A stretch of DNA of 64,000 nt from an uncultured Gemmatimonadales bacterium (GTDB lineage: Bacteria; Gemmatimonadota; Gemmatimonadetes; Gemmatimonadales; Gemmatimonadaceae), in the NCBI GenBank assembly GCA_963851265.1, contig CAWKNZ010000002.1, forward strand, positions 1,632,001 through 1,696,000. Reading direction: 5' to 3'. Below the pieces are notes generated by a model. That model was not told where the DNA came from, did no database searches, and was given only the letters and a program-made list of their open reading frames with translations. The translations under genes were made by a program, and so were the position numbers. Shown in pieces: positions 4,089-63,667 of this stretch (the stretch's first letter is position 1; every line of letters begins with the position of its first letter).

Positions 4089-5621
4089 TCACCGGAGCGC
4101 TCGCGCCGTCACGGGCTGCGTGGTGCCGACCAGCCGCTGCACGGTACCGTTGCGCACGACGCGGAAGATGGGAGGCAGCGCCACGTCGGTGAACGCGTCG
4201 ACGGGCGTGCGCTCCGCCACCGGACCGAGCACCGCGGCGAGGTCGGCCGCCGACGGCGGCAGCAGCGGCTCCGACGCGGCAACGTTCACCGCGTACCCGA
4301 GGTCTGCCAAGCTGAGCACAGTGAGGCGAGACGCGGGATGCGTGGTGGCCTTCGCCAGGTATCCGACCATCAACTCCGAGCGGAAAACCGCCGACCGCCA
4401 GTGAGAGCCGGCCGTCCCGGGCCCGCCGGTGTTCTCGACGGGCACGCCGGCGCGGTCCTGCGTGAACCCCAACGCCGCGCTCCCGCCCTCGCCGAGCGGA
4501 CCGGTGTACTGCGGGTCGAGGGTGCCCTCGTTGACGAGATAGCCGCGCACGCCGCCCACGTTCCAGAGCGTGCCGATCCCGAGCACGTGTCCCATCTCGT
4601 GGCGGATGACGTCGTATGCCGTTCCGGCGGCGACGAGGCCGGCGAAATCCGCGGAGTCGAAACGCATCGAGCCCACGAGCGTTAGGCCACGCCCCTGCGT
4701 GACCGGGTCGCTCCGCAGGACGCATGGACCCGCCGCGCCGAGGATCGCGCCCTTTCCGTCGATGCTGTCGACGCGGAACAGGATCGTGACGCCCGTCGAC
4801 GCGGCGAGCTTCACCTCGGGCGTCGAGTCGGCGCACGACCCGGCGGGCAGGGCAAGGTCGGCCGCGGGCAGGGCCGCCGTGATCACCGACTGCCAGAACG
4901 CGGCCGCGCGGGTAAACTCGGCCGCGTAGCGCGGGTCGACGGCGCCGACCTGGACGAGGTTGATGATGAACGCGCCCTGCGTGACCGGCGCGACCGCGAC
5001 GGGCAGCGTCGTGCTGACGCCCCGGCCGCGGAAGGTGGCGCGCACGGCAATCTGCGTTCCGCCCGCGGTGCCGGCCGTGAGCGCGTTCCCGCTCACGCTC
5101 GCGATGCCCGTGTTGTCGCTCGCGTACGCGACGGGGTAGCTGATCCGGTTGCCGGATGCGTCGTACACGGCCACGGACAGGGCGACCTGTTCGCCGGGCG
5201 AGGCGTCGACGCGTGTCGGGAGCACGCGGACCGTCGCGGCCGGGGCGAGCGACACGAGGCTCGGCGTGGCGAGGGTGAGCGGTGTCGTCCCCGGCACGTC
5301 CGTCGCACGCGCGGTGACGACCACGGGCCCCGCACCGACGAATCGCACGACGCCAGCGGCGCTGACACGCGCGACCGTCGTGTCGGAACTCGCGTAGGTG
5401 AGCGTCCCGACAGTCCCGGCCCGCCCCGACGCGTCGGTGAGGGTCGCGCCGAGCGCGACACTGTCGCCGACGATGGCCGAATCGGGCTGCGTCGCGAAGG
5501 CGATCCGCGTGGGGACGATCACGAGCGGCGCAGGCGTTCCCTCGCCGCCGCCGCACGCAGCGCCCGCGAGGGCCACGGCGGCGAGCAAGACGGCGCGAGA
5601 GCGGATGACCGATGGTCGCAT
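4089..5621 (-). CDS. Lipoprotein with Ig-like (Big_2) repeats and a leishmanolysin-like (M8-type) zinc metallopeptidase domain
   Basis: Signal peptide ending GAAC, two YASSD/YASDN Ig-like repeats, HEMGHVLGIG (HExxH), GTAGSHW and SELM motifs. Confidence 0.8.
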   Translation of the reverse strand: MRPSVIRSRAVLLAAVALAGAACGGGEGTPAPLVIVPTRIAFATQPDSAIVGDSVALGATLTDASGRAGTVGTLTYASSDTTVARVSAAGVVRFVGAGPVVVTARATDVPGTTPLTLATPSLVSLAPAATVRVLPTRVDASPGEQVALSVAVYDASGNRISYPVAYASDNTGIASVSGNALTAGTAGGTQIAVRATFRGRGVSTTLPVAVAPVTQGAFIINLVQVGAVDPRYAAEFTRAAAFWQSVITAALPAADLALPAGSCADSTPEVKLAASTGVTILFRVDSIDGKGAILGAAGPCVLRSDPVTQGRGLTLVGSMRFDSADFAGLVAAGTAYDVIRHEMGHVLGIGTLWNVGGVRGYLVNEGTLDPQYTGPLGEGGSAALGFTQDRAGVPVENTGGPGTAGSHWRSAVFRSELMVGYLAKATTHPASRLTVLSLADLGYAVNVAASEPLLPPSAADLAAVLGPVAERTPVDAFTDVALPPIFRVVRNGTVQRLVGTTQPVTARALR

Positions 5622-5714
5622 GCTGCGCGATGGGCGACGGAGAAGCCGCGCAGGCCGTCGGTGGCCGGCGCGTGTGGGCGGAAGGTCGGACCTGGTAGTA
5701 GTTTTTGAAAGGCC

Positions 5715-5797
5715 GGAGGGCTGGCAGAATGGCTATTGCAACGGTCTTGAAAACCGTCGTCCGCGAGGACTTGTGGGTTCGAATCCCACGCCCTCCT
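5715..5797 (+). tRNA. tRNA-Ser(TGA)
   Basis: Acceptor stem GGAGGGC/GCCCTCC, anticodon arm ACGGT-CTTGAAA-ACCGT, long variable arm GTCC-GCGA-GGAC, GGTTCGAATCC; CCA not encoded. Confidence 0.95.
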
Positions 5798-6101
5798 CTT
5801 CGCCAAGTCGCTGTCACAGTGCGAGTTGCCGTCGTGTCCCACGACCTGCGCGGTCCGCGCGGACGCGGCGTCGCTCGATGGCGCCGACGAGACGGTGCGG
5901 GTCGCCGACCGCCTCGGGTCGCAGCAAGTTCGCCACGACGGACGCGTTAGGGCTCGCTCTGCGCGAGTGCGACGCGCGCCGTCGCGCCGCTCCACGACGA
6001 GCGCGGCGTGCGGCGGTTCGCGAGGCGCGCCGAGCTGCGTGAGCGGCCGTTCCGCAGGACCCGTGCGGACGCGCGGGTGGCGGGGCGCGCCGCTGAACGC
6101 G

Positions 6102-6272
6102 TTAGGCCGTCGTCGTCCTGCGGCGACGGGCCACGCCGGCCAGACCGAGCAGCCCCGTCCCGAGCAGCGCCCAGGTCGCTGGCTCTGGGGTCACCGTGCC
6201 CGGTGTGTACTGAAGATCGTCGTACGTGTAATACGGGACGTCCGACATCAGGTCGACGCGGCTGATGCCGGC
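6102..6272 (-). pseudogene. PEP-CTERM sorting-domain tail, probably a truncated remnant
   Basis: Frame ends VTPEPATWALLGTGLLGLAGVARRRRTTTA*; upstream in-frame sequence lacks a signal peptide and looks non-coding. Confidence 0.65.
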
Positions 6273-7119: not shown

Positions 7120-7235
7120 GGCGCGGCGCGGCGCGTTCGCGTGTCGCGCCCGGGTTGCTCGCCGACGGCCGCCGGATTAGCGTAGTGCAGTCGAGCCGGC
7201 CCGGTCCGCCGGGTGTGGCGCGGCACACAGCTCGT

Positions 7236-7324: not shown

Positions 7325-7328
7325 TCTT

Positions 7329-7359: not shown

Positions 7360-7431
7360 TGTGCGTTCGGGCCGACCCGGTGAAGCGCCGACGTCCGCGG
7401 CGCGCCCGAGTTCGCCTCTCACTGCCGCTCC

Positions 7432-8910
7432 ATGTCCGAGATCGAGACCCCGCCCCGTCTGCGCTTCGCGCCCTCGCCGACCGGCTACCTCCACGTCGGC
7501 GGCGCGCGCACCGCGCTGTTCAACTGGCTGTGGGCGAAGCACACCGGCGGGCAGTTCCTGCTTCGCATCGAGGACACCGACAAGGCGCGCAGCACCGACG
7601 AGAGCACGCGCGCGATCTTCGACGGACTGCGCTGGCTCGGCCTCGACTGGGACGAGGAGGTCGTGTACCAGGGCGCGAACCTCGAGCGCCACCGGCGCGA
7701 CGCCGACCGCCTCGTCGCGAGCGGCGCGGCGTACCGCGACTTCATGCCGCAGGAGGAGCTGCAGAAGCGACGCGCCGACGCGGAGGCGCGCGGGGAAGCG
7801 TTCCGCTTCCGACGCGAGTGGGCCGAACTGCCGCGCGACGAGGCGGAGCGCCGCGCGAGCGCCGGAGAGCCGCACGTGATCCGATTCCGCGCGCCGCTCG
7901 ACGGGGAGACCGCGTGGGACGACCTCGTGCACGGGCGCATCGCGTTCCCGAACAAGGACATCGAGGATTTCGTCGTCCTGCGTTCCGACCGCACGCCGAT
8001 CTACAACATGGCGGTGGTGAGCGACGACGTCGCGATGGAAATCACGCTCGTCATGCGCGGCGACGACCACATCTCCAACACCCCCAAGCAGATCCTGCTC
8101 TACCACGCGTTAGGCGCCGCGCTACCCCGCTTCGCGCACCTCCCGATGATCCACGGCACCGACGGGAAGAAACTGTCGAAGCGCCACGGGGCGACGGCGG
8201 TCGGCGACTACCAGTACCGCGGGATCCTGCCGCAGGCGATGCTCAATTTCCTCGCGCTGCTGGGCTGGAGCCCGGGCGGCGACCGCGAGGTGTTGACCGT
8301 GGCGGAGCTCGTCGAGCTGTTCACGCCCGACGGGCTGTTGCGCAAGGCGTCGGTGTTCGACCCGCAGAAGCTCGAGTGGATGAACGGGCAGCACCTGTCG
8401 CTGCTTCCGCTCGCGGAGCTCGCGCCGCGCGTGACCCCGGCGCTTGTCGCGGCCGGACTCGCGACCGAGGCCGACCTCGCCGCGCGCGGCGCGTGGTACG
8501 ACGCGCTCCTCGACCAGCTGCGCGTGCGCGCGCGGACGATCGACGACATCGTGCGCCAGGCGACGCCGTACCTGCGCGACGAGATCACCTACGACCCCGA
8601 TGCCGTCGCCAAGCAGTGGCTCAGGGATCCCGCGACGGCCCGGACGCTGCTCGCCGACGCGCGCAGCGCACTCGCCGAACTCGCGGAGTGGACGCCGGGC
8701 GCGATGGAACCCGCACTGCGCGCGGCGGCCGAGGCACGCGGGCTCGCGGCGGGCAAGTTGTTCCAACCGCTCCGCGTCGCTCTGACGGGTCTCACGGTCA
8801 GCCCGGGGATCTTCGACGTGCTCGAACTGCTTGGGCGCGAGCGTGCGCTCGCGCGCATCGACGCGGCCCTGGTGCGCATCGACGCGGAGGCTCCGGCGGC
8901 CGAGCGTTGA
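7432..8910 (+). CDS. gltX: Glutamate--tRNA ligase
   Basis: RFAPSPTGYLHVGGARTAL (HIGH-type), LRIEDTD, KKLSKRHG (KMSKS-type). Confidence 0.97.
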   Translation: MSEIETPPRLRFAPSPTGYLHVGGARTALFNWLWAKHTGGQFLLRIEDTDKARSTDESTRAIFDGLRWLGLDWDEEVVYQGANLERHRRDADRLVASGAAYRDFMPQEELQKRRADAEARGEAFRFRREWAELPRDEAERRASAGEPHVIRFRAPLDGETAWDDLVHGRIAFPNKDIEDFVVLRSDRTPIYNMAVVSDDVAMEITLVMRGDDHISNTPKQILLYHALGAALPRFAHLPMIHGTDGKKLSKRHGATAVGDYQYRGILPQAMLNFLALLGWSPGGDREVLTVAELVELFTPDGLLRKASVFDPQKLEWMNGQHLSLLPLAELAPRVTPALVAAGLATEADLAARGAWYDALLDQLRVRARTIDDIVRQATPYLRDEITYDPDAVAKQWLRDPATARTLLADARSALAELAEWTPGAMEPALRAAAEARGLAAGKLFQPLRVALTGLTVSPGIFDVLELLGRERALARIDAALVRIDAEAPAAER

Positions 8911-16465: not shown

Positions 16466-17743
16466 TCAGGTTTTCCGCGGCTTCTTCTTCGCGGCCGGGA
16501 ACAGGACGTTGTTGAGGATCAACCGGTAACCGGGCGAATCCGGGTGCAGCGCGAGGTCCGTCGGCGGCGAGCCGATCGCGTGCTGCGGGTCCTCGGGGTC
16601 GTGCCCGCCGAGGTACGTCCACGCGCCCTTGCCGTAGTCGCCATGGATGTACTTGACCCACGGCGCGCCGTCCTCGGTGGCGAGCACCGTCACGCCGGGC
16701 TTCACGGTCGCCTTCGTGAACGACGTGGTCACGCCGTAGAAGTCGGGGATGCTCGTGCGGTGGTCCTGCACGAGCATCGACGGGACCGGGTCGAATTTGG
16801 CGGAGAACGCGAACAGCTGGAACGTGCCTAACGGCTGGCGCCGCCCCGGCACGTTCACCTGGTGTCCGTCGATGTCGGAGAGCGCCGTGACGTACGGCGG
16901 CGCGAGGTGGGCGTTCTGAAACGCGAACGAGCGCGCCCACAGCATCTTGCGGTCCGCGTCGGGGTCGGGCGGCGGCCCGCCCGCCGCGATCCCGGCGAAG
17001 TTGACCGACTCGCCTGCGATCGCGAGGTCGAGCGACTCGGTCGCGCCGCACATCGCGAACAGGAAACCGCCGTTCTCGACGTAGGTGCGGATCCGCTCGG
17101 CGACCGCCTTCTTGAGCGCCGGGACCGACGCATAGCCGTGGCGCGCGGCGGCCTCCACCAGCACCGCGTGCTGCTCGCGGTACCAGGGCGCGGCCGAGTA
17201 GGTCAGCGCGAGCTTGTTCTGCTGGCCCGTGAAGTCCTCGTGGAAGAGGTGCACCCACTCGTACTTGCCTAGGGCGCCGGCGAGCACGTCGTCGTCCCAG
17301 ACCTTCTCGAACGGAATGCCGGCGTACGTGAGCGCGAGCGTGACCGCGTCGTCCCACGGCTGGCCGCCGGGCGGCGTGTAGATCGCGACGCGTGGCGCCT
17401 TCTCGAGCGGCACGGCGTCCATGTTCCCGCCGGACATCTCGCGCCGCACGTCGGCGACCTGGACGGCGTCCTCGGGCTCGACGCTCACGCCGGCGAGCGC
17501 GGCCCGGCGCCGCAGCTCCGGCAGGTCGGGGACGAAGAACGCACCGCCCCGGTAGTTCAGCAGCCACTCGGCCTTCTGGCCGTCCTTGAGCACGCCGTAG
17601 ACGAGGCCGTAGGCGCGCAGGTGGTTGCGCTGCCCGTCGTCCATCGGGACGAGGAGCGTCTGCGCGCGGGCCGCGGGCGCGACGAGCGGCGCGAAGGCGA
17701 GGGCGGCCGCGGCGAGTGCGCGGCGTGGGCGGGACGACGTCAT
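16466..17743 (-). CDS. Secreted conserved protein with class-I glutamine-amidotransferase-like fold (family often auto-annotated 'asparagine synthetase B')
   Basis: Signal peptide; LVPMD..QRNHLRAYG, WLLNYRGG, QPWDDAVTLALTYA, GGFLFAMC, GHDPED, SPGYRLILNNVLFPAA. Confidence 0.7.
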   Translation of the reverse strand: MTSSRPRRALAAAALAFAPLVAPAARAQTLLVPMDDGQRNHLRAYGLVYGVLKDGQKAEWLLNYRGGAFFVPDLPELRRRAALAGVSVEPEDAVQVADVRREMSGGNMDAVPLEKAPRVAIYTPPGGQPWDDAVTLALTYAGIPFEKVWDDDVLAGALGKYEWVHLFHEDFTGQQNKLALTYSAAPWYREQHAVLVEAAARHGYASVPALKKAVAERIRTYVENGGFLFAMCGATESLDLAIAGESVNFAGIAAGGPPPDPDADRKMLWARSFAFQNAHLAPPYVTALSDIDGHQVNVPGRRQPLGTFQLFAFSAKFDPVPSMLVQDHRTSIPDFYGVTTSFTKATVKPGVTVLATEDGAPWVKYIHGDYGKGAWTYLGGHDPEDPQHAIGSPPTDLALHPDSPGYRLILNNVLFPAAKKKPRKT

Positions 17744-17746
17744 GCG

Positions 17747-19729
17747 TTAGGCGCTGCCGAGGCGGTCGAGCTCGCGGCGCGCGATCGGGACGAGCGCGCT
17801 GTCCGGGTAGCCCATGATCAGGTGTTCGAAGTGCGAGCGGGCCGCGGTTCGGTCGCCGGCCGCGAGCAGTGACCGGGCCCACGCGAGTTCGGCGGCGGGC
17901 GCTTCGGGCGCGTCGGCCGCGTCGGCGAGGATCTGCCGCCAGAGGGCGGCCGCGCGCGCGCGGTCGCCGGCGCCGCTCGCGACGTCGGCGGCCGCAGCCA
18001 TCAGCGGCGCGCGCACGTCGGGGAGCGCGCGGGCCGCGCGCTCGAGCGCCGCCACCGATCCCGGCGCGTCGCCCCGTGCCGCGGCGAGCAACGCGTCGCC
18101 GAGGCCAGGGGCGGAGTCGGCGCGCGTGCGCGCGAGCACGGCGCGCGCAGCGGCGCGCACGTCAGCGAGCAGCCCGCCGCGCGGGTCGAGTGCGGGGGGC
18201 GAGTGGGCAAAGTTCGCCCGCGCGCCGCGCAGGTTGCCGGTCGCGAGCGCGAGCCACCCTGCCGCCTCGCCGCTGTCGGCGCCGACGCGGCGCAGCGCCG
18301 CGGCCGCGCGCGGCACGTCCCCGCGCGCGATCCAGGCCGCCGCGAGCGCGTCGGCCGCGGCGTTCGCGACGGCGCTGCCGGGTGCGCTCCCGGCGGCACC
18401 GGCGGCGGCGCTTCGCGCCGGGATTGGCATCTCGGCGGCGACGCGCTCCGCCTCGTCGACGCGGCCGAGCGCGGCGAGCGCCTGGACGCGGAGTAAGCGG
18501 AGCGGGGCGGCCGTCGAGTCACGCGACTCGGCGCCCGCGCGCTCGCGGTCGAGGAGCGCGAGCGCGCGCGCCGGGTCGCCGCCCTGCAAGGCGTCGTCCG
18601 CGGCCCGGGTGAACGCCTCGTGGGCATCGCCGCTCCCCCGCGGGCTGGCGTCGAGCACGCGCGCCCATGCATCCGCCGCGGTGCGGCGCGCGCCGCTCGC
18701 GTCCAGTTCGGCCGCGACGATCCGCCACAGGTCGCGAGATTCCGTGCTCAAGGGCAGCGCCGTTGCGAGCGCCCACGCCGCACTCGGCCGGTGCCACGCG
18801 ACGAGGAGCGCGGCCGCGGCGCGCCGGGCAGCCGCGTCGCGCTCGATCGGCGGCGTAGACGGCGCACCCGCCGGGGATGACCCGGTCGCCGCCGCGTTCG
18901 ACTGGGCGATGCCGGTCGCCGCGAGCGCGCCGACGACGGCGTCGCGCACCGTGTCGGGCGCGGGCCGGAGGGCGTACACGGCAGCGTCGGCGTACACCGC
19001 GTCGTCGGTGAGCACGTCGCGCCAGGTCCGCGCCGCATCCACCCACGCTCCGTCCGCGACCAGCGCGCGCGCGCGCGACGGCCGCAGGGCGCTTCTCGCC
19101 TCGCGCGAGAGCGGCGCGTGGTCGGCGTCGGCGAGGACGCTGTCGGCCGCCGCGCGCCGCGTCGCGTCGAGCAGCAGACGGAGGTACTCCAGATACGGTC
19201 CGGCGTCGGCCGGCGACGAGCGCCGCCATAGGTCGTACGAGGCGCGCGCCTGGGCGTCGCGCCCCATCATGGCGAGGGTGCGCAGGGCGATCGAGTGCGC
19301 GACCGGGTCGGCCGGGTGCTGGCGTAACACGTCCGCGGCGAGCGCGAGCGACGAGTCGGGGTGCCCCTCGTCGCTCCACAGCCGTTCGAGCCCGAGCAGC
19401 GCGGCGTCGCGGGAATCCGCATCGCGCGCCGTGTCGGCGAGGGCGAGCGCACGACGGAACGCCGCGACCGCCTCGCGCGGTCGAGACGTTTCGAGGTCGA
19501 ACGCGCGTGCGAGCGCGAGCGGGGCCGTCGCGGGAAGCGCCAGGGCCGACCGCGCCGGCGCGCCCGCCGCGGGTGCCGACGTCGGCGGGGCGGGCGAGGT
19601 CTTCGCGGCCCCGGCGGGCGCCTGCGCCGCGCCGGCGCGCGGCGTTAGGCCGACGGCGGCCGCGGCGGCCAGGCACGCGGCGGCCGAGAGCGCGAGCGCC
19701 CCGGCGCGGCGCCGACGATTCGGGGTCAC
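17747..19729 (-). CDS. Secreted Ala-rich TPR-like protein
   Basis: GTG overlaps upstream stop; signal peptide; helical repeats; C-terminal HFEHLIMGYPDSALVPIARREL. Confidence 0.7.
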   Translation of the reverse strand: MTPNRRRRAGALALSAAACLAAAAAVGLTPRAGAAQAPAGAAKTSPAPPTSAPAAGAPARSALALPATAPLALARAFDLETSRPREAVAAFRRALALADTARDADSRDAALLGLERLWSDEGHPDSSLALAADVLRQHPADPVAHSIALRTLAMMGRDAQARASYDLWRRSSPADAGPYLEYLRLLLDATRRAAADSVLADADHAPLSREARSALRPSRARALVADGAWVDAARTWRDVLTDDAVYADAAVYALRPAPDTVRDAVVGALAATGIAQSNAAATGSSPAGAPSTPPIERDAAARRAAAALLVAWHRPSAAWALATALPLSTESRDLWRIVAAELDASGARRTAADAWARVLDASPRGSGDAHEAFTRAADDALQGGDPARALALLDRERAGAESRDSTAAPLRLLRVQALAALGRVDEAERVAAEMPIPARSAAAGAAGSAPGSAVANAAADALAAAWIARGDVPRAAAALRRVGADSGEAAGWLALATGNLRGARANFAHSPPALDPRGGLLADVRAAARAVLARTRADSAPGLGDALLAAARGDAPGSVAALERAARALPDVRAPLMAAAADVASGAGDRARAAALWRQILADAADAPEAPAAELAWARSLLAAGDRTAARSHFEHLIMGYPDSALVPIARRELDRLGSA

Positions 19730-24185: not shown

Positions 24186-24189
24186 CTGC

Positions 24190-32423: not shown

Positions 32424-33008
32424 TTGAAGGTCATCCTCGGCCTCGGCAACCCCGGCGAGGAGTACCGCGAGACGCGACACAACGTCGGCTGGGTGGTGCT
32501 CGACCACCTGGCCGACGTTTGGCGTTTCGACGCGTGGCGCCGGGACGGCGACAGCCTCGTCACGTCGGGGCTCGTGGGCACGACCAAGGTGCGGCTGCTC
32601 AAGCCGCAGACGTACTACAACGCGAGTGGGCACGCGCTCACGCCCTTCCTCCGCCGTCCGTTCTGGGCGCCGCAGACGGACCTGCTCGTGGCCTGCGACG
32701 ACGTCGCGATCCCGGTCGGCACGTACCGGCTGCGCCCGCAGGGGAGCGCCGGCGGCAGCAACGGGCTCAAGTCGATCGAGCGTACGTTAGGCCACCAGCA
32801 CTACCCGCGCCTCCGCGTCGGCACCAAACCGGCCGACGAGCGGCGGGAAGTCGGCAACCTCGTCGACTTCGTACTCTCGCCGTTCGACGCGATCGAGCGA
32901 AAGGAGATCGCGGACCTCATGCCGCGCCTCACCGACGCGGTCGAGCTGTGGCTGCGCGACGGGATCGTCGCGGCGATGAACAAGCACAACGGTAAACAGT
33001 CGGCCTGA
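32424..33008 (+). CDS. pth: Peptidyl-tRNA hydrolase
   Basis: GLGNPG.EY..TRHNVG, LLKPQTY, GSAGGSNGLKSI; TTG start. Confidence 0.94.
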   Translation: MKVILGLGNPGEEYRETRHNVGWVVLDHLADVWRFDAWRRDGDSLVTSGLVGTTKVRLLKPQTYYNASGHALTPFLRRPFWAPQTDLLVACDDVAIPVGTYRLRPQGSAGGSNGLKSIERTLGHQHYPRLRVGTKPADERREVGNLVDFVLSPFDAIERKEIADLMPRLTDAVELWLRDGIVAAMNKHNGKQSA

Positions 33009-49779: not shown

Positions 49780-50574
49780 GTGGCAGGCGCGTTCGCGATT
49801 CGCCTGACGACGATCGGCACCGGTACGGTCCCGCCTTCGGCCACCCGCGTCAATCCCGGGCATCTCGTCGAAGCGGGCGCCGTGCGGCTGCTCATGGATT
49901 GCGGCAGCGGCGTCGTGCACCGGATGGCGACGCTCGGCGTCGACTGGGCCTCGATCACGCACGTCGCGCTCACGCACTTCGACCAAGACCACACGAGCGA
50001 CGTGGCCGCGCTGTTCATCGCCTGGCGGTACGGGCAGCTGCCGCCGCGCGCGGCCCCGGTGGTGGTGCTGGGACCGGTCGGCACGCGCGGGCTGCTCGAC
50101 CGCCTCGCGGCGGCGCTCTGGGCGACGCTGCTCACGCCCGGGTTCCCGGTCGAGGTGGTCGAGCTGGCGGCGGGCGCGACGCACGTTCTCGGCGACGGCG
50201 TCGTGCTCTCGACGCGCGCGGTCACGCACCAGCCGGAGAGCATCGCCTACGCGGTCGAGCACGCGGGGCGCCGCGTGGTCTACACCGGCGACACCGCGCC
50301 CGACCCGACGTTAGGCGCCTGGGCGCGCGGCGAGGGCGGGTGCGACGTGCTCCTCACGGAATGTTCGCTCCCCGAGACGATGGCCGTGCCGTCGCACCTG
50401 ACGCCCGAGAGCGTGGGCGACCTCGCCGCTGCGGCCGACCCGGGGCTGCTGGTGCTGGCGCACCTGTACCCGCCCGTGGAGGCGCTCGACCTGCCCGCGA
50501 TAATCGGCGGGCGATGGCGGGGACGCGTGGTGGTGGCGCACGACGGCTGGTCGGTGGAGTTGCCGCCGCGGTAA
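49780..50574 (+). CDS. Metallo-beta-lactamase-fold hydrolase (RNase Z/AtsA-like)
   Basis: GTGT, LMDCGSG, THFDQDHTSD, YTGDT, HLTP, LAHLYP. Confidence 0.85.
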   Translation: MAGAFAIRLTTIGTGTVPPSATRVNPGHLVEAGAVRLLMDCGSGVVHRMATLGVDWASITHVALTHFDQDHTSDVAALFIAWRYGQLPPRAAPVVVLGPVGTRGLLDRLAAALWATLLTPGFPVEVVELAAGATHVLGDGVVLSTRAVTHQPESIAYAVEHAGRRVVYTGDTAPDPTLGAWARGEGGCDVLLTECSLPETMAVPSHLTPESVGDLAAAADPGLLVLAHLYPPVEALDLPAIIGGRWRGRVVVAHDGWSVELPPR

Positions 50575-51722: not shown

Positions 51723-52436
51723 ATGACATCGTCATTCGGATTCACCCGCGGCGCGTTGCCCGCGGGCCTGCTCGCCGCCGCTGCGCTCGCGGCGGGCCTA
51801 ACGGCATCGCCGGCCGGCGCGCAGGACCCGGCGTCGGCCGCGATCGACCGCGCCGCGCAGGCGTTCCGCGCGGCGCGCACCATCCACGCGACGTTCGAGC
51901 AGACGCTCAGCAATCCCGCGACGGGTACGACGAACACCACGTCGGGCGACCTCTCGCTCGCGCAGCCCAACCGCGTCGCGCTCCGCTTCAACAACGCGGG
52001 CGGCGATCGCGTGATCGTCGACGGCCGCACCGCGTGGGTGTACCTGCCGAGTGCGGCGCCCGGGCAGGTGATGAAGCTGCCCGCCCGCAGCACCGGCATC
52101 TCGGGCGTCGAGAGCGTGAGCGAGCTGCTGGCCTCGCCCCGCTCGAGGTACACCGTCGCCGATGGGGGCGCCGCAACGGTCGGCGGCCGGGCGACGCGCG
52201 TGGTCGTGCTCACGCCGAAGGCCGACGGCCAGCCCGTGACGAAGGCGCGCGTGTGGGTGGACGACCAGGACGGCGCCGTGCGCCAGATGGAACTGACCGA
52301 CGCGAACGGGCTGGTCCGCTCGCTGCGCATGACGACGTGGGAGCCCAATGCGAAGCTCGCGCCGTCGACGTTCACGTTCGAGGTCCCGAGCGGGGTTCGC
52401 GTCGTCGATCGGGCGCCGGCGCCGACCGGCCGCTGA
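51723..52436 (+). CDS. lolA: Outer-membrane lipoprotein carrier LolA-like protein
   Basis: Signal peptide; ATFEQT, G....QPNR, IVDGRTAWVYLP...QV, FTFEVPSGVRVVD. Confidence 0.8.
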   Translation: MTSSFGFTRGALPAGLLAAAALAAGLTASPAGAQDPASAAIDRAAQAFRAARTIHATFEQTLSNPATGTTNTTSGDLSLAQPNRVALRFNNAGGDRVIVDGRTAWVYLPSAAPGQVMKLPARSTGISGVESVSELLASPRSRYTVADGGAATVGGRATRVVVLTPKADGQPVTKARVWVDDQDGAVRQMELTDANGLVRSLRMTTWEPNAKLAPSTFTFEVPSGVRVVDRAPAPTGR

Positions 52437-52449
52437 CCCGCGTTCGGCG

Positions 52450-53346
52450 TTAGGCTGGGTCCGAACCGTCCGCCGAGCCACGGCGCGGTCGAGCTTCGGG
52501 CCGCTCGAGCATCGAGGCGATGACGTCTAGACCGCGTCGCGGCGGCGCGCCCGATTCCCGGGCGACATCGACGGTCGCACGCGCGAGCGCGCGGTAGAGT
52601 GCGTCGGCGTCGGCGTCCGCGGTGAGTGCCGCGAGGTGGCGTGCGACGGTCGCGGCGTCGCCGCGCGCGACCGGGCCGGTGAGCGCGGCGGCGGGATCCA
52701 TCGCGGCGCCGACGTTCGCCGCCGCCGACGCGAGCAGCCCGCGTACAGCACCGCGCGCGCCCTCGCGCTCGACCCCCGCAGCCGCGAACAGCCGCTCGGC
52801 GGTCGCGGCGAGTACTACGGGAAAGTTCGACGCGAACACGGCGGCCGCGTGATAGACCGCGCGCGCATCGGGCGCGTCCGGGATCGTGAGGGTGCGCGCC
52901 GCGATGCGGTCCGCCAAGCGACGCCCCATCGTCACCGCCGCCGCGTCGCCGCCGAGCCCGATCCAGACGCCGCGCAGGCGCTCGGCCCCGGAGTTCGGGT
53001 CAGCGAGCGGCACGAGGGGGTGGAACGTACCGACCCCGGCGACGCGGCCGCGAAGGACGGCATCCGACGCGTCGGGCGCGCGGGCGCCGCTCAGCTGCAA
53101 CACCACCGCATGCGGCCCCGGCCCCGCGCGGGTGTGCGCGGCAGCCGCGAGCTCCTCGAAGACGCCAGTCACGGCCGCATCGGGCACCGCGACGATCACC
53201 ACGTCGACGACACCGACCACCGTGGGCAGCGGGCGGTCGCGCCCCCAGGTTCCCAGCACCGGCACGGACGCCGCCTCGAGCGCTGCCGCGAGCGAGCGTC
53301 CGGCCTTCCCCGCCCCGACCACGCACGCGCTCGGCGCGTCCGGCAT
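52450..53346 (-). CDS. Rossmann-like plus DUF2520 oxidoreductase (PanG-like)
   Basis: VVGAGKAG, AVPD, LSGA, FHPL, YHAAAVFASNF, LTGPVARGD..TV..HL. Confidence 0.85.
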   Translation of the reverse strand: MPDAPSACVVGAGKAGRSLAAALEAASVPVLGTWGRDRPLPTVVGVVDVVIVAVPDAAVTGVFEELAAAAHTRAGPGPHAVVLQLSGARAPDASDAVLRGRVAGVGTFHPLVPLADPNSGAERLRGVWIGLGGDAAAVTMGRRLADRIAARTLTIPDAPDARAVYHAAAVFASNFPVVLAATAERLFAAAGVEREGARGAVRGLLASAAANVGAAMDPAAALTGPVARGDAATVARHLAALTADADADALYRALARATVDVARESGAPPRRGLDVIASMLERPEARPRRGSADGSDPA

Positions 53347-53384
53347 CCCGCCGCGCCGCACGCGCGTCGCCCGGCGCGTACGGC

Positions 53385-55103
53385 CTAACGCGTCGCCGGG
53401 TGCGCGGCCGAGTCGGCCGCGGCACGTGCGCGCGCCACGCTGTCCGCCCGAGCCGCCGCCGTCGCACGCCCGAGCAGTTGCGCGGGCGAGGTCGCGCCGG
53501 CGGCCAGCCCACGCGCGGTGCGGAGGGCGACGTCGTCGACGGCGCGGCGCTGGAACTCCGCGTCGGGGCCGAACACGGTGCGCGCGACCTCGTACCCGAT
53601 CTGCCGGTCGACGAGCGAACGGGCCGCGTCGAACGTCGCACGGGTCATCACGACGTGGCGCGCCGCGAGCCCGCGCCAGACCGCGTCGCGCGAGGCCGGC
53701 GTGACCGCGAAGCCCGGATGCGCGGCAAGCGCGCGCGCGCCCGGGCTCGCCGCGTACTCCGCGACCGCGTCGCGGAACGCGGTCACCTGCCGGCCGAGCG
53801 CGCGGACGAACGCCAACTCGGCCGGGGCGGCGGCGGTGTCGCCGGCCACGACGTCTGGCGCGATGCCGCCGGCGCCGAACACCGTCCGTCCGCCGTCGGT
53901 GTGGAAACGCGGGCGGTGCGCGCCGGCGTTGTCGGGGCTGCTCCCCGGCGCGTCGTCCTCCGCGGCCACCTCGTCCGGCGTGGCGAGCGGGCGGCTGATG
54001 GAGCGCCCGGACGGCGTGTACCAGAGCGCGGTCGTCAGCTTCAACGCACCCCCGCCCGCAACGGGGAAGACGTTCTGCTTGCTCCCCTTCCCGTACGTGG
54101 GCGTGCCGACGACGGCCGCGCGGTCGTGGTCCTGGAGCGCGCCGACGACGATCTCCGCCGCGCTCGCGGTGCCGCCGTCGACGAGCACGACGAGCGGGAG
54201 CCCGGCGTACTGCGCCGGAAGCGAGTCGACGTAGCGGTGCTCGTCGTCGGGCGTGCGGCCGGCCGTGCGCACGACGAGTTGGCCGGGGGCGAGGAACAGG
54301 TCGGCCACCCCCACGCCCTGGTCGATCGATCCACCGGGATTGCCGCGCAGATCGAACACGACCGACGTCGCGCCTAACGCGTGCAGCGAGTCGATCGCCT
54401 GGCGCACCTCCCCGGCCGACGCCGCGGTGAACGCGGCGAGATCGAGGTAGCCGACGCCGTCGCCGAGGAGGGCGACGCGGCGCACCGAGCGGAGCCGGAC
54501 CTCCTCGCGCGTGACCGTGACCGGGATGCGGCCTTCGATCCCCGGCCGCTCGACGACGAACCGCACGGGCGTGTTGGGCGCGCCGCGCAGACGCTTGGTC
54601 GCCTCTTCGGCGGTGAGTCCGTGCGTTGGATCGCCGGCGATCTCGACGATCCGGTCGCCCGCGCGCACCCCCGCCCGCTCACCCGGCGACCCGGGCACCG
54701 GATTCACCACCGTGACGACGCCGTCGCGCACGTCGAGCCGCAGGCCGACGCCGGCGTAGGTGCCCGCGGCGGTCTCGGTCAGTCTCCGCAGGCGCTCGGG
54801 GGTGAGGAGCGCGCTGTTGGGATCGCCGAGTTCGCGTACGAGCCCCACGGCGGCCTGGTCCCGCAGACGTTCGGGCGCGATCGAGTCGACGTACTCGCGC
54901 GCGACGCGGCGGCTCACCTCGTCGAACAGGTGCGCGCCGGCCGCGGTGCTGGGCCCCTGCCCCTGCACACCGCGCCCGACGAGCCACGCCCCCGCGACGA
55001 CGGCCGCGGACAGCGCGGCGAGGACGACCACGGGTTTCGGATGCACGCGCACGCGGGGGGTGGTGGACGGAGCGGAAGGACGCGCCTCGGGACCGGGGCG
55101 CAC
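53385..55103 (-). CDS. Carboxyl-terminal processing protease (S41, PDZ)
   Basis: LGDPNS, GVGL (PDZ), DLRGNPGG, TASAAEIV, TYGKGS, LKLTTALWYTPSGRSI, GGIAPD. Confidence 0.93.
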   Translation of the reverse strand: MRPGPEARPSAPSTTPRVRVHPKPVVVLAALSAAVVAGAWLVGRGVQGQGPSTAAGAHLFDEVSRRVAREYVDSIAPERLRDQAAVGLVRELGDPNSALLTPERLRRLTETAAGTYAGVGLRLDVRDGVVTVVNPVPGSPGERAGVRAGDRIVEIAGDPTHGLTAEEATKRLRGAPNTPVRFVVERPGIEGRIPVTVTREEVRLRSVRRVALLGDGVGYLDLAAFTAASAGEVRQAIDSLHALGATSVVFDLRGNPGGSIDQGVGVADLFLAPGQLVVRTAGRTPDDEHRYVDSLPAQYAGLPLVVLVDGGTASAAEIVVGALQDHDRAAVVGTPTYGKGSKQNVFPVAGGGALKLTTALWYTPSGRSISRPLATPDEVAAEDDAPGSSPDNAGAHRPRFHTDGGRTVFGAGGIAPDVVAGDTAAAPAELAFVRALGRQVTAFRDAVAEYAASPGARALAAHPGFAVTPASRDAVWRGLAARHVVMTRATFDAARSLVDRQIGYEVARTVFGPDAEFQRRAVDDVALRTARGLAAGATSPAQLLGRATAAARADSVARARAAADSAAHPATR

Positions 55104-57081: not shown

Positions 57082-58156
<1,075 letters not shown>

Positions 58157-59220: not shown

Positions 59221-60092
59221 GCGCAGGCGGCAGTCTCGCGCTCGTCTGCTGGGGGGTTCGCGGCTCGGTTCCGGCGCCGGGTCCGGCGACCGCGCGATAC
59301 GGGGGAAACACGCCGTGCGCCGAAATCCGCGCGGCCGACGGGCGGTTGCTGCTGCTCGACGCGGGCACCGGAATGCGGCCGTTAGGCGCGGCCTGGGGCC
59401 CCGGGCCCGACGTCCCGGACGCGGAGATCGACGTGCTCGTCTCGCACGCGCACGGCGACCACCTGCACGGCCTCGGCTTCTTCGCGCCGTTCGTCGCCGG
59501 GCAGGCCCGCCTCACGCTCCACACCGCGCTGGGACAGGTCGCGGCGATCGAGGCGGGCGTGCGCGCGATCCTGGCCCCGCCGCTCTTCCCCACCATCGAC
59601 GGGCTGCTCGCGCGCGTGCACGTGCGGGGCCTCGATCCCGACGCGACGACCACCGTCGCCGGCTTCGACGTGCGCGCGCTCGAAGCGGCACACCCGGGAG
59701 GAGCCGCCGGCTTCCGTGTCACCGACCCGGACGGGGGTGGCTCGCTGGTGTACCTCCCGGACAACGAACTCGCCGCGGTCGAGACGTTGGGCGGCGGCCG
59801 CGGCGCGCTGCTCGCCGCGATCGCGGACGCCGACCTGCTGATCCACGACGCGACGTACCTGCCGGCCGAGTTGACGAGACATCGGGGGTGGGGGCACTCG
59901 TCGTACGCGGAGGCCGTGCGGCTCGCGTCGGACGCGGCGATCGGGAAGCTCTTGCTGCATCACCACCATCCGTCGCGGGACGACGACGGGGTGGATCGAC
60001 TGCTGCGGGTGGCGAGAGGCCTGGGGGAGGCGGCGCGGCCGGGGGTGGAGGTGGGCGCGGCGACGGAAGGGGAGGTGGTGCGGGTCGCCTGA
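59217..60092 (+). CDS. MBL-fold metallo-hydrolase (putative cyclic-nucleotide phosphodiesterase)
   Basis: WGVRGSVP.PG....RYGGNTPC, DAGTG, SHAHGDH, HPG, HDATY, WGHS, HHHP; GTGA overlap with the crp-like gene. Confidence 0.85.
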   Translation: MSAGGSLALVCWGVRGSVPAPGPATARYGGNTPCAEIRAADGRLLLLDAGTGMRPLGAAWGPGPDVPDAEIDVLVSHAHGDHLHGLGFFAPFVAGQARLTLHTALGQVAAIEAGVRAILAPPLFPTIDGLLARVHVRGLDPDATTTVAGFDVRALEAAHPGGAAGFRVTDPDGGGSLVYLPDNELAAVETLGGGRGALLAAIADADLLIHDATYLPAELTRHRGWGHSSYAEAVRLASDAAIGKLLLHHHHPSRDDDGVDRLLRVARGLGEAARPGVEVGAATEGEVVRVA

Positions 60093-60126
60093 CCCGTTCC
60101 GCGTCTGCGGCTGCGGGCGGGATGCC

Positions 60127-61707
60127 TCAGGCGGGCCCCCAGCCCCCCCCGCCCGGCGTTTCGATCCTCACCACCTCCCCCGCGCGCACCTCCACCCGGC
60201 ACTTCGCGGACAGCGCCGTTTCGCCTAACGCGTTCCGCCCGGTCATCCCGTCCGCGCCGCCGCTTGCCCCCCGCGGCGCCCGCGCCCGCCGCTCGGTGAG
60301 GAGGGTGACCGTACAGGGTGCGAGCGCCCGGTACTCCCGCACGATCCCGTCGCCACCGGCGTGCCGCCCCGCACCGCCCGACCCCTCGCGCACCGCGTAG
60401 CGCTCGACGCGCAGCGGGTAGGCCCGCTCGAGCGCCTCGACCGGCGTGTTGAGCGTGTTACTCATCCCCACGTGCACCCCGGTGGGCCCCGGCCCGCGCG
60501 ACGACGCGCCCTGCCCTCCGCCTAACGTCTCGTAGAACGTCCACGCGCCCCCGCCCGACTCGCCGCCGAAGGTCACGTTGTTCATCGTCCCCTGCCCCTG
60601 GGCGGCCACGTCGAGCCCGGCGGCGGCGAGCGCGGCGAAGATCACGTCGGTGAGTCGCTGCGACATCTCGACGTTCCCCGCCGCGACCGCCGCCCCGCGC
60701 GGCGCGTCCGCCGCGCACCCCGCCGGCACCGTGAGGACGACGGCGCGCCCGACCCCGTCGTTGGTCGGGACGTCGTCGTCGACGAGAGTGCGGACGGCGA
60801 ACACCCCCGCCGCGCGCGCGACCGCTCGCGGGCAGTTCACGTTGCCCCGCACGCGCGGCGACGTGCCCGCGAGGTCCACGTGCAGGCGCCCGTCGCGCAC
60901 CTCGACCGCCGCGCGCACGGGCACGGGCGCGTCGCTCACGCCGTCGCCCTCGAGCGCGTCGTCGGCCACGCCGCGTGCACCCTCGTACCGGGCGAGGCGC
61001 GCGCGCGTGCGCCGTTCCGCGTAGTCGAGCAGTGCTGCGCAGGCCGCGCGCACGCGTGCGCCGCCCTCCCGCGCCCACAGCGCGCGCCACGCGTCGCGCC
61101 CCGCGGCACAGGCCGCGAGCTGCGCGCGCAGGTCGCCGCGGCGCTCCTCGGGCGTGCGGACGTTGGCGAGCACGATCGCGAGTACGTCGGCGTCGGGCGT
61201 GCCCGGCGGATCCGCCTCGGCGCGCACGAGGCGAACCGGCGGCAGCACCAACCCTTCCTGGACGAGCTCCGTCGCGCCCTGCGGCATGCTTCCGGGACTC
61301 ATCCCGCCGACGTCGGCGTGGTGAGCGCGAACGGCCGCAAAGCCGATCAACCGCTCCGCGTCGTCCGGATCGGCGATCACCTCGACGAGCGTGAGGTCGG
61401 GCAGGTGCGACCCACCGGCGAGCGGGTCGTTGAGCAGGAACACGTCGCCCGGGCGCGGGCCGCGCGCGCGCACGGCCGCGACCGCCTCGGGCATCGCGCC
61501 CAGGTGGACGGGGATGTGCGCCGCCTGGGCGACCATCGCGCCGTCCGCGTCAAACAGGGCCGACGACGCGTCGCGCCGCTCGCGGATGTTGGGCGAGAGC
61601 GCCGTGCGTACGAGCAGCGCGCCCATCTCCTCCGCGATCATCGCGAGCGCGTGCCCCCACACCGGGAGGGCGAGCGCGTCGATCGTCTCGTGCCGCTCGG
61701 AATTCAT
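60127..61707 (-). CDS. Hydantoinase B/5-oxoprolinase subunit
   Basis: RTALSPNIRERRD.S, HIPVHLG, NDP..GGSHLPD, HHADVGG..PGSM, QGTMNN, YET.GGG, NTPVE, ETPGGGGWG. Confidence 0.95.
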   Translation of the reverse strand: MNSERHETIDALALPVWGHALAMIAEEMGALLVRTALSPNIRERRDASSALFDADGAMVAQAAHIPVHLGAMPEAVAAVRARGPRPGDVFLLNDPLAGGSHLPDLTLVEVIADPDDAERLIGFAAVRAHHADVGGMSPGSMPQGATELVQEGLVLPPVRLVRAEADPPGTPDADVLAIVLANVRTPEERRGDLRAQLAACAAGRDAWRALWAREGGARVRAACAALLDYAERRTRARLARYEGARGVADDALEGDGVSDAPVPVRAAVEVRDGRLHVDLAGTSPRVRGNVNCPRAVARAAGVFAVRTLVDDDVPTNDGVGRAVVLTVPAGCAADAPRGAAVAAGNVEMSQRLTDVIFAALAAAGLDVAAQGQGTMNNVTFGGESGGGAWTFYETLGGGQGASSRGPGPTGVHVGMSNTLNTPVEALERAYPLRVERYAVREGSGGAGRHAGGDGIVREYRALAPCTVTLLTERRARAPRGASGGADGMTGRNALGETALSAKCRVEVRAGEVVRIETPGGGGWGPA

Positions 61708-61717
61708 CGCGCCTCCG

Positions 61718-63667
61718 TCAGAGTGCCTCGACCCACCAGCCGCCGACGTCGAGCGCGCGCGCCGCCCACCCCGGAGCCACGTACAGCGTCGCGTCGGCGA
61801 GGGCGATCGCGGCAGGTCCGTGTACCACGTCGCCGGGCCGGGTGCGCGCGTCGTCTACCGCGCCCCCTGCGGCGCCCCCGTCTCCGAACACGCGACGCGC
61901 GAACACGGGCGACGCGCCCGGCGTGACGGCTGCGTGCCGCAGGCTCACCACCTCGGCCGCGCGCTCGAGCGTGAACCCGGCGCGCCGCGCGTGCGCCGCC
62001 GCGAACCGCGCGGCCAGCGCCGCGCCGTCGTCGCCGTCGTGCACGGGCACGTCGAGCTCCGCGCCCTGCCCCACGTAGCGGACGCGCGCCCACGTGCGGC
62101 GCTCGGCGCCGCCCCCCGCCGCGGCGGCGGCACGCGCGACGAGACCGCCTAACGCGTCGGCCGGCAGTGCGTCGGCGAACCGCGCGACCCCGACGAGCGC
62201 CTCGCGGCGGTCAGGCGCCGCGGCGAGCCCGACCGCGCTCAGCACCCCCGCGTGCGGCGGCACGAGCACGCGCGTCACGCCGAGCCGCTCGGCGAGCGCG
62301 CAGGCGTGCAGCGGCCCGCCGCCACCGAACGCCACGAGGACCAGTCCGCGCGGGTCGACGCCGCGTTCGACGCTCACGCGCCGCAGCGCACGCGCCATCT
62401 CCGCGTCCGCGGCGGCGACGATGCCCTCCGCGACCGCGCGCACCCGCGCGTCGGGCGCGGCGCGTCCGTCGAGCCGTTCTGCGACGCCCGCCACCGCGGC
62501 GTGCGCGCGCGCGGCGTCGATCGCGACGTTGCCGCTCAGGCGCGACGGCGCGAGGCGGCCGAGGACGACGTGCGCGTCGGTGACGGTCGCGTCCGTGCCG
62601 CCGCGTCCGAACGCCGCGGGCCCCGGCACCGCGCCCGCGCTCCGCGGTCCGACGCGCAGCGCGCCGCCGTCGTCCACCCACGCCACGCTCCCGCCGCCGG
62701 CCGACACCGTGTCGACGAGCACGCGCGGCAGCGCGATCGGCACGCCCGCGACCACGCCGCCCGCCTCGACGAGCGGCTCGCCGTCGAGCACGAGGCCGAC
62801 GTCGGCACTCGTCCCGCCGACGTCGAGCGTGAGCGCGTCGCGCACGCCTAACGCCGCGAGCACCGCGGCCGCGCCGGCCACGCCTCCGGCCGGGCCGGAG
62901 AGCGCGAGCGCCGCCGCGCGCTCCGCGGCCTCGTCGGCGCGCAGCACGCCACCGCCCGACGTCATCACGCCCGGCGCCGGGTACCCCGCGCCGCGCAGTC
63001 GCTCGCCGAGCCGGCGGAGGTAGTGCGCCACGCGCGGGCGCGCGTACGCTTCGGCCGCGGTCGTCGCCGCACGCTCGTACTCGCGCGGCTCCGGGTAGAC
63101 GGTCGATGAGCGCACGACGGGCACCCCGGACGGCAACGCCGCCTCGAGCGCGGCCGCGAGCGCGCGCTCGTGCGCGTCGTGCGCGTACGCGTGCAGCAGC
63201 ACGACCGCGACCGCCTCGGGCGAGCGCCCGCGCACAGCCTCGACGGTCGCGGCGACCGCGGCGGCGTCGAGCGCGCGGACGACCCCGTCCGGGCCCATCC
63301 GCTCCGCCACGCCCACCGCGTCGTCCGCGGCGACCAGCGGCGGCGGGTGGTGGGCGGTGAGGTCGTACAGGCGGGCGCGGTCCTGGCGCCGCAGGCGCAG
63401 CACGTCGGTGTGCCCCGCGGTCGCGCACAGCACCACCCGCGCGCCCGTCCGCTCCAGCAGGAGGTTGGTCACGACCGTGGTGCCGTGCACGACGCGGCCG
63501 ACGCTGGCTGGCGCGAGGCCCGACGCGCCCAACGCATCGAGCACCCCCTCGCTCTGGTCGGCCGGGCGCGTCAGCACCTTCGCGGTCGAGACGCGCCCGT
63601 CGGGCGCGATCGCCGCGAGGTCGGTGAAGGTGCCGCCGACGTCGATCCCGACCGCGACGCCGGTCAC
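61718..63667 (-). CDS. Hydantoinase A/5-oxoprolinase subunit
   Basis: GIDVGGTFTD, HGTT, SGPAGG, DVGGTS, AGGGS, GPRSAGA.PGPA, FGGGGPLHA. Confidence 0.95.
   Translation of the reverse strand: MTGVAVGIDVGGTFTDLAAIAPDGRVSTAKVLTRPADQSEGVLDALGASGLAPASVGRVVHGTTVVTNLLLERTGARVVLCATAGHTDVLRLRRQDRARLYDLTAHHPPPLVAADDAVGVAERMGPDGVVRALDAAAVAATVEAVRGRSPEAVAVVLLHAYAHDAHERALAAALEAALPSGVPVVRSSTVYPEPREYERAATTAAEAYARPRVAHYLRRLGERLRGAGYPAPGVMTSGGGVLRADEAAERAAALALSGPAGGVAGAAAVLAALGVRDALTLDVGGTSADVGLVLDGEPLVEAGGVVAGVPIALPRVLVDTVSAGGGSVAWVDDGGALRVGPRSAGAVPGPAAFGRGGTDATVTDAHVVLGRLAPSRLSGNVAIDAARAHAAVAGVAERLDGRAAPDARVRAVAEGIVAAADAEMARALRRVSVERGVDPRGLVLVAFGGGGPLHACALAERLGVTRVLVPPHAGVLSAVGLAAAPDRREALVGVARFADALPADALGGLVARAAAAAGGGAERRTWARVRYVGQGAELDVPVHDGDDGAALAARFAAAHARRAGFTLERAAEVVSLRHAAVTPGASPVFARRVFGDGGAAGGAVDDARTRPGDVVHGPAAIALADATLYVAPGWAARALDVGGWWVEAL

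Follow-up and report, generated by a model that had tools for sequence, protein, structure and literature searches.

A hyper-abundant, strand-symmetric octamer in Gemmatimonadaceae genomes that may act as an uptake-like DNA signal

The 64,000-nucleotide stretch of DNA analysed here (G000:C2:1632001-1696000, the window) belongs to the genome of an uncultured member of the Gemmatimonadaceae, assembled as G000 in 12 contigs that total 4.60 Mb with 73% G+C. The window carries 31 exact copies of the octamer CGTTAGGC (the word), which is the most over-represented octamer of the whole genome. A force keeps the word far above its mutational equilibrium; it acts on double-stranded DNA, in either orientation, over stretches of a few hundred bases. 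By analogy with the uptake signals of the Neisseriaceae and Pasteurellaceae, we tentatively propose a drive acting on DNA fragments, to which we assign a probability of about 0.45. We infer uptake or transfer as the biased step and a protein receptor as the reader of the word.

The first-pass annotation of the window listed 31 copies between positions 4680 and 62853, 17 on the + strand and 14 on the − strand, and our recount gave the same numbers. One hundred dinucleotide-preserving shuffles of the window, which has a G+C content of 0.71-0.80, contained on average 1.10 copies (standard deviation 1.02, maximum 4), and none reached 31. The excess therefore stands, and its size is about 28-fold instead of the 15-fold estimated earlier. 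The two additional heptamers at 13425 and 37742 are both present as AGTTAGGC on the − strand, and the one-mismatch variants were found at 5945 (CGTTAGGG), 29644 (CGTTAGAC), 34601 (CGTTAGCC) and 41851 (CGTTACGC). Matches with at most one mismatch number 82, compared with a shuffle mean of 50.7, and the surplus is accounted for by the exact copies alone, which number 31. Taken together, the 51 one-mismatch matches show no enrichment in the window. Pfam assignments bore out the host genes named from the sequence, which are gltX, pth, ychF, smc (two copies), prfA, an S41 protease gene and the genes of hydantoinases A and B.

The signal extends beyond the window and the assembly, since all 12 contigs of G000 carry copies and the word is hyper-abundant in other genomes as well. 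G000 contains 1396 copies, one per 3.3 kb, of which 708 are forward and 688 reverse, whereas Markov models of order 0, 1, 2 and 3 predict 145, 82, 50 and 58, respectively. The genome-wide k-mer count suggested by the first-pass annotation placed the word first by a wide margin (z of 190 at order 2 and 175 at order 3), and the next-ranked octamers are overlapping pieces of it. The word is non-palindromic, with the reverse complement GCCTAACG. Its core heptamer GTTAGGC occurs 1762 times in G000 and is preceded by C in 79% and T in 14% of cases, and followed by G in 54%, A in 22%, C in 19% and T in 5%. The same flank preferences, and no wider consensus, characterise the 268 copies located entirely within spacers. 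The form of the word is YGTTAGGCV, with the core GTTAGGC mostly preceded by C.

The word is written at the level of DNA, against the codon use of the host. Genes were called with our own simple codon-likelihood caller, which gave 3737 genes and 88% coding sequence and is not a curated annotation. Sense reading as nCG-TTA-GGC accounts for 785 of the 1396 copies, and 170 are antisense and read G-CCT-AAC-G, which is the same wobble phase; 61 read nGC-CTA-ACG, 22 read C-GTT-AGG-C, and 358 are outside called genes. Because 167 of these 358 overlap a called stop codon, about 191 copies (14%) lie in spacers, which make up 12% of the DNA. The word contains 92 of the 435 TAA stops (as GCC-TAA-CG) and 75 of the 750 TAG stops (as CGT-TAG-GC), and 785 of the 1294 TTA codons of G000 lie in it. 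The excess held against a codon-aware null: of the 4727 sites that encode [APST]-Leu-Gly, 785 carry the word, where 16.3 would be expected; the figures are 170 of 798 (8.9 expected) for x-Pro-Asn-[VADEG], 61 of 1882 (5.0 expected) for [SGRC]-Leu-Thr and 22 of 3068 (0.42 expected) for x-Val-Arg-[LPHQR]. Within the context nCG_GGC, TTA represents 27.3% of 2878 leucine codons, compared with 1.0% of 130887 overall, and within G_AACG, CCT represents 26.3% of 646 proline codons, compared with 2.2% of 81571 overall.

The equal occupancy in both orientations indicates that the force acts on duplex DNA and not on RNA or protein. The 78% of genic copies that point with their gene do so because only certain peptides can hold the word, since occupancy is the same on both strands. 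The position of the word along genes is flat. Occupancy of compatible sites is 17-21% in the phase with A at the wobble position and about ten times lower, 0.7-3.2%, in the second open phase (CTA-ACG, GTT-AGG). The share of this second phase is larger in the relative G012, where local G+C periodicity assigned 86 copies to it versus 169 to the first and left 310 unclear. Across quartiles of gene G+C content at third codon positions (GC3), occupancy climbs from 0.13 to 0.36, and native-looking genes are richer in words.

The first-pass annotation had set the word apart from polar signals such as Chi and the FtsK-orienting polar sequences (KOPS) by its strand symmetry, and we observed no replichore-type polarity beyond gene orientation. 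Local gene direction served as the proxy for polarity, the G+C skew of G000 being too weak to place the origin and terminus. Same-strand runs of copies track the orientation of genes. Where genes run in the locally dominant direction, the sense type reaches an occupancy of 0.29 and the antisense type one of 0.17; where they run against it, the small samples give 0.22 (21 of 95 sites) and 0.17 (3 of 18). Strand-resolved bins of two long contigs show the same weak trend towards co-orientation.

Copies of the word interfere with each other whatever their orientation, at distances of up to about 300-750 bp. The gaps between copies are roughly exponential, with a deficit of short ones. For the null distribution, occupancy was reshuffled 300 times among 3524 compatible main-phase sites within GC3 quartiles, and all pairs were counted. 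Pairs at 0-100 bp were observed 2 times versus 27.1 expected (ratio 0.07), at 100-200 bp 3 times versus 25.9 (0.12) and at 200-300 bp 9 times versus 26.9 (0.33), and for none of these three bins was a value as low found in any of the 300 shuffles. The ratio is 0.69 at 300-500 bp (36 versus 51.8) and 0.73 at 500-750 bp (44 versus 60.2), and approaches 1.0 past 750 bp. Clustering of rare codons was rejected as the cause. Pairs of one TTA-type and one CCT-type copy, which share no codon and have opposite orientations, are also depleted, with 0 versus 10.4 at 0-150 bp, 3 versus 12.0 at 150-300 bp and 5 versus 11.7 at 300-500 bp; therefore, the interference is not a rare-codon effect. Sixty random control octamers with 1200-1700 copies each had median ratios of 1.07-1.19 below 300 bp, and not one of them came down to the ratio of the word in any of these bins. 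The interference was replicated in a second lineage, G012 (341 kb, 490 heptamers, 1.44 per kb), in which the ratio relative to uniform placement is 0.30 for pairs 0-100 bp apart and 0.45 for those 100-200 bp apart, with values of about 1 at longer distances. The range is thus shorter where the density of words is higher. Such interference is not predicted by a bias acting on each site autonomously, and is predicted if a single word acts for a few hundred bases of DNA.

Words are conserved about seven-fold above background among four congeners. The window was aligned to syntenic DNA of G001, G002 and G004, with nucleotide identities of 78-84%. Together the four species have 56 word sites, and of the 28 that are aligned in all of them, 7 are common to all, 11 occur in a single species (private copies) and 10 are intermediate. 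Of 14 sense-phase copies of G000, 7 are unchanged across the four congeners, compared with 701 of 9318 same-phase octamers, and none of 12 matched CG-Leu-GGC sites with another leucine codon is identical in the four species. Private copies mostly face CGCTCGGC in the sister species, two changes away (CTC to TTA). Among the states that differ by one change, the A-to-G transition at the wobble base of TTA is the commonest (6 of 16). The smc copy at 47685 is common to the four congeners, and other genera encode Leu-Glu, Leu-Gln or Leu-Ser at its position. All four copies in smc of G012 are private, and three of them are at positions with other amino acids in other genera. The force is therefore strong enough to change such poorly conserved residues.

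The longest word-free stretch of G000 spans 45 kb (G000:C1:182875-227962), whereas exponential spacing would give a gap of this length about 0.0013 times. The stretch does not represent an island, since it contains gidA/mnmG, parA, parB, mnmE and other core genes and has typical G+C. The DNA aligned to it contains 2 words in 36.2 kb in G004 and 1 word in 27.4 kb in G001, whereas the aligned DNA flanking the block contains 10 words in 12.2 kb and 6 in 13.4 kb. A general exclusion zone around parB was rejected, since words occur directly at parB in G012 and G299; the desert is a within-genus feature.

The word is patchily distributed among relatives. Genomes were considered word-rich if the word was at least twice as frequent as its reversed-word control and its density was 100 copies per Mb or more. 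The tally of 31 close relatives and the tree of SMC sequences include the unpublished genome G011, and the phylum-wide tally of 301 includes G011, G078, G117 and G198; all four are word-poor, and the conclusions do not depend on them. Ten of the 31 close relatives are rich, namely all five species of the genus of G000 (727-2415 copies) and G012, G008, G017, G018 and G030, and the others have fewer copies than the reversed control. G012, with 62.5% G+C, has 6360 copies, one per 0.8 kb. In the phylum sample, in which every genome has a completeness of 80% or more, 12 of 301 genomes are rich: 10 of 71 in the family of the window, 2 of 125 in a sister family, both from genus g72, and 0 of 105 in ten further families. 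Richness differs even within a genus, since in g42 the genomes G235 and G292 have about 4000 copies each and G288 has 66 versus 190 for the control. Syntenic DNA with 70-74% nucleotide identity contains 59 heptamers over 34.8 kb in G235 and none over 46.4 kb in G288. A comparison of amino-acid "fossils" of lost words in G288 was uninformative without an outgroup. In the SMC tree of 27 relatives, G008 (164 copies per Mb) is sister to G006 (7 per Mb) with a Shimodaira-Hasegawa-like approximate likelihood ratio test (SH-aLRT) support of 95. A single clade of rich lineages was not recovered on this tree, in which the base of the family is unresolved. The existence of lineage-specific dialects of the word was rejected, since an order-2 Markov scan of six word-poor relatives (200 kb of G006, 200 kb of G015, 100 kb of G016, 60 kb of G014, 40 kb of G010 and 20 kb of G009, the smaller samples being weak) gave only codon-type words with z of 7-20.

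Based on these observations, a mechanism of word maintenance can be proposed. DNA fragments bearing the word would be preferentially taken up or otherwise transmitted, and homologous recombination would then place them in the chromosome, so that mutations creating a word would spread and those destroying one would be replaced. If one word per fragment is enough, a second word close by would gain nothing and would decay. A molecular drive has been proposed for uptake sequences (PMC1939737, PMC2817400). Like the DNA uptake sequences (DUS) of the Neisseriaceae and the uptake signal sequences (USS) of the Pasteurellaceae, the word is short and non-palindromic and occurs in one to several thousand copies, in both orientations, in ordinary genes and spacers. 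USS are not biased in orientation around the chromosome and are spaced more evenly than by chance (PMC1939737), and the word resembles them in both respects. It also resembles uptake sequences in occurring at poorly conserved residues and in being missing from some blocks of genes (PMC2817400). The word differs from DUS and USS in its length of 7-9 bp without flanking AT tracts, in having few copies arranged as inverted pairs in terminator-like hairpins, and in its occurrence in another phylum.

The receptor for DUS in Neisseria is a ComP-type minor pilin. G000 has a transformation tool-kit that includes DprA, ComEA-like HHH_3 genes, pilus ATPases and two secretins, and it also has two major-pilin-like genes and an operon of four minor-pilin-like genes. 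In mechanistic terms transformation is thus possible, but the tested genes do not separate rich from poor genomes. A ComEA-like HHH_3 gene adjoins two pilus-type ATPase genes at G000:C7:759936-763025, which is a candidate DNA-uptake locus. ComEC was rejected as a tracker of richness because it is present in each of the 31 genomes searched, and the 330-residue minor pilin encoded in the four-gene operon was rejected because it has homologues in rich genomes (G235, G292 and G008) and poor ones (G288 and G006) alike. Since ComEC and the pilin also occur in word-poor genomes, gene content does not explain richness.

Several of these results weigh against a fragment-based drive. The distribution of ComEC and of the minor pilin does so, and no receptor for the word was found among the competence and pilin genes examined. 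We found no report of natural transformation in Gemmatimonadota in the literature searched. Compared with uptake fragments, the distance over which copies interfere (200-750 bp) is short. The word uses the rarest codons, whereas known uptake sequences favour reading frames with preferred codons (PMC2817400). The same octamer is hyper-abundant in at least 14 genera, without dialects, whereas a receptor that co-evolves with its word should drift. The word-poor gidA-parAB block in three congeners is not predicted by an uptake-like model, and the identity of the word to the attC core of integrons, flanks included, is left by it as a coincidence. The earlier suggestion of an actively maintained genome signature is upheld in its general form, in that the word is dispersed, strand-symmetric, conserved among congeners and written at the DNA level. 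Self-DNA uptake fits best among the mechanisms listed with it, with the missing receptor and the competence genes of word-poor relatives as its weak points.

Alternatively, the word could be the binding site of a chromosomal protein with a nucleoid-organising, loading or protective role, each copy being under ordinary selection and serving a neighbourhood of a few hundred bases. Redundancy at short range follows if one bound site covers its surroundings, the conservation of copies above background is expected, and the poverty of the gidA-parA-parB-mnmE block (no words over 45 kb in G000, 2 over 36.2 kb in G004 and 1 over 27.4 kb in G001) recalls classes of sites that are excluded from one chromosome domain. 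However, selection per site would have to outweigh the cost of rare codons and amino-acid changes at about 1400 places, and close relatives dispense with the word, as illustrated by G288 and G235 (0 in 46 kb versus 59 in 35 kb). The words at parB in G012 and G299 show that the desert is not general, and no candidate protein was found. We regard a binding site as unlikely.

The R box of integron attC and attI sites has the consensus GTTRRRY, and crossover takes place within GTT. The integron integrase IntI, or another protein that recognises the R boxes of attC and attI, could be the reader of the word, and the dispersed words would then be solo R boxes multiplied or kept by it. Same-strand runs of words 500-650 bp apart in word-poor genomes are cassette arrays. 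The cassettes of this lineage each end in an attC site of about 95-100 nt, bounded by GCCTAAC and GTTAGGC, and two of the arrays adjoin IntI genes. GTTAGGC is identical to the R' box in 35 attC sites of G021 and G019, which come from four arrays of two genomes and are non-independent. The base ahead of the R' box is C in 34 of them, the equivalent R'' base is T in 33, and the base that follows the R' box is G in 21, A in 8, C in 4 and T in 2. The dispersed copies have C (.75-.79) or T (.14-.15) ahead of the core, and G (.51-.54), A (.22-.26), C (.17-.19) or T (.05) after it, and the preferences of the two groups have the same order. The match of boundaries and flanks favours an integron-linked reader, and an external, pan-bacterial convention would explain why many genera have an identical word. 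This identity asks for an anchor, for which the universal R box is one candidate. IntI is also common in the order, exceeding the curated cut-off in 18 of 31 genomes.

The occurrence of IntI is not tied to richness, however, and it was rejected as a tracker. The gene is found both in rich and in poor genomes. Among the rich ones, it looks intact in G235, G292, G299 and G159, is broken in G001 and G012, and was not found in G002, G008 and G018; it also looks intact in many poor genomes, including G288. G000 has a split IntI, in which C6:5244-6044 corresponds to positions 2-265 of the family model and C6:3005-3166, on the same strand and about 2 kb away, to positions 260-313. Private gains of words occur in G001 and G002 despite a broken or not-found integrase, respectively. 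More than 99% of the copies in G000 are solo, in conserved reading frames, without a partner box, hairpin or cassette, and only about five attC-like hairpins (C6:1591; C10:188935, 194557, 202949 and 203673) stand beside 1762 heptamers. By our own reasoning, it also counts against a recombinase that depletion peaks below 100 bp, where looping between its sites is hardest. Insertion of cassettes into genomes by the integrase needs GWT alone, according to a preprint (bioRxiv 10.1101/2022.09.11.507474), which argues against an integron-linked reader and led us to reject genomic attG sites as the explanation of the word. The core sequence was not found in the main text of PMC4670013. Overall, an integron-linked reader is unlikely.

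Large chromosomal cassette arrays with very uniform attC sites were observed in the word-poor relatives at G021:C95:1-24000, G021:C80:1-7600, G019:C3:1-9000 and G019:C26:1-4718. In G021, 34 of the 65 copies of the word are within two arrays that were read, and G021:C80 has an integrase fragment on the same strand as the cassettes. In G000, an attC-like site (C6:1591-1708) lies by the split integrase (C6:2951-6044). At G000:C10:188935-203792, four attC-like hairpins with GCCTAAC and GTTAGGC at their boundaries and lengths of 97-121 nt occur within 15 kb; no integrase was found beside them, and they probably constitute a small cassette array.

A sequence-specific repair or methylation bias, of the very-short-patch kind or that of the highly iterated palindrome 1 (HIP1), would convert near-matches site by site. 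Hyper-abundance against codon use recalls HIP1 of cyanobacteria, a hyper-abundant octamer in genes that is 15- to 300-fold over-represented and has no accepted function (PMC5861425). The wobble transition as the commonest one-change state is also in line with such a bias. However, the word is non-palindromic, unlike HIP1, and most private gains are two changes (CTC to TTA) from the sister state. Vsr (PF03852) was found in none of the 10 word-rich genomes and in 3 of the 21 word-poor ones, which excludes it as a tracker of richness. The repair or methylation drive put forward by the first-pass annotation is weakened by this and by the interference between neighbouring copies, and appears very improbable. 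Finally, a polar signal of the Chi or KOPS kind, with RecBCD/AddAB or FtsK as its reader, is hardly credible. The over-represented octamer has a Chi-like density of about one copy per 3 kb and a weak co-orientation with local gene direction. However, by the gene-orientation proxy it shows no replichore-type polarity; it is equally occupied in both orientations (27.3% and 26.3%), forms strand runs that follow gene orientation and favours the sense type even in genes opposed to the local direction (0.22 versus 0.17). The probability left over belongs to an explanation that we have not thought of.

Copies in the window were located by exact matching and gene calls, with Pfam used for named genes and alignment for conservation. 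Most are in sense within genes. On the + strand, these are the copies in gltX (8108..8115, nCG-TTA-GGC), in gene 28441-29454 of the LPG synthase TM family (29339..29346), in pth (32785..32792), in ychF (33813..33820), in the SPOR-domain gene 43108-44727(+) (43769..43776), in smc (47685..47692 and 48093..48100), in the metallo-beta-lactamase-fold gene 49780-50574 (50309..50316) and in gene 59346-60092 (59380..59387). The copies in ychF and the SPOR-domain gene and the first copy in smc are kept in all four congeners, and the second smc copy has a one-off TTG form in G004. Sense copies on the − strand are in gene 16466-17743(−) (16826..16833, nCG-TTA-GGC), in the gene 19726-23475(−) that encodes 1249 residues (20863..20870, 21724..21731 and 23251..23258), in the S41 protease gene 53385-55031(−) (54372..54379), in prfA (57671..57678), in the hydantoinase B gene (60223..60230 and 60520..60527) and in the hydantoinase A gene (62147..62154 and 62846..62853).

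Antisense copies on the + strand are read as nGC-CTA-ACG in gene 4089-5588(−) (4680..4687), in gene 17747-19729(−) (19643..19650) and in gene 38075-39244(−) (39230..39237, private to G000), and as G-CCT-AAC-G in the last of these genes (38728..38735). On the − strand, antisense copies are in the SPOR-domain gene (43490..43497, private to G000) and in the lolA-like gene 51756-52436(+) (51796..51803). Four copies contain stop codons. The TTA of the copies at 17745..17752 (+) and 52448..52455 (+) forms the TAA stops of genes 17747-19729(−) and 52450-53361(−), respectively, and the TAG of the copies at 24188..24195 (−) and 53383..53390 (−) is the stop of gene 24190-25104(−) and of the S41 protease gene. 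The copies at 6100..6107 (+) and 43091..43098 (+) are in spacers, the latter ahead of gene 43108-44727. Between tmk and a prmC-like methyltransferase gene, with prfA just past the latter, a small gene at 55810-56160 (−) belongs to the YlbF/YmcA family (PF06133), whose name, "control of competence regulator ComK", is no more than suggestive.

Hyper-abundant genome words are rare, and DUS, USS and HIP1 have driven decades of work on the distinction of self from foreign DNA. The first-pass annotation knew of no description of the word for this lineage; in agreement with this, we found no description of over-represented octamers or uptake sequences in the literature on Gemmatimonadota, supplementary material being outside the scope of the search. 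What this study adds is the comparison of occupancy in the two orientations, the finding that copies interfere, together with its controls, and the control for conservation. It also adds the distribution of the word across the phylum and within a genus, the negative findings on Vsr, IntI, ComEC and the pilin, the agreement of the attC flanks and the word-poor gidA-parAB block. The interference length is a number that every mechanism must explain, and the on/off contrast between sisters (G235 and G292 versus G288, and G008 versus G006) allows the reader to be approached directly by comparison.

The identity of the word to the integron core may, if it is not due to chance, join two fields. The seven letters of the attC/attI core are the same and the flanking-base preferences match in arrays of the same order, even though the word differs from the core in its solitary copies and in the lack of a link between IntI and richness. 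We consider it quite unlikely that the reader shares the specificity for integron R boxes and that rich Gemmatimonadaceae tag their whole chromosome with the core of cassette recombination. If this is true, DNA exchange by uptake or recombination of short fragments would be coupled to the traffic of integron cassettes, and ordinary genes would be ready-flanked by cassette boundaries, which bears on the unsolved origin of gene cassettes. The word would be the first case of its kind in the Gemmatimonadota, a common and little-studied phylum of soil bacteria.

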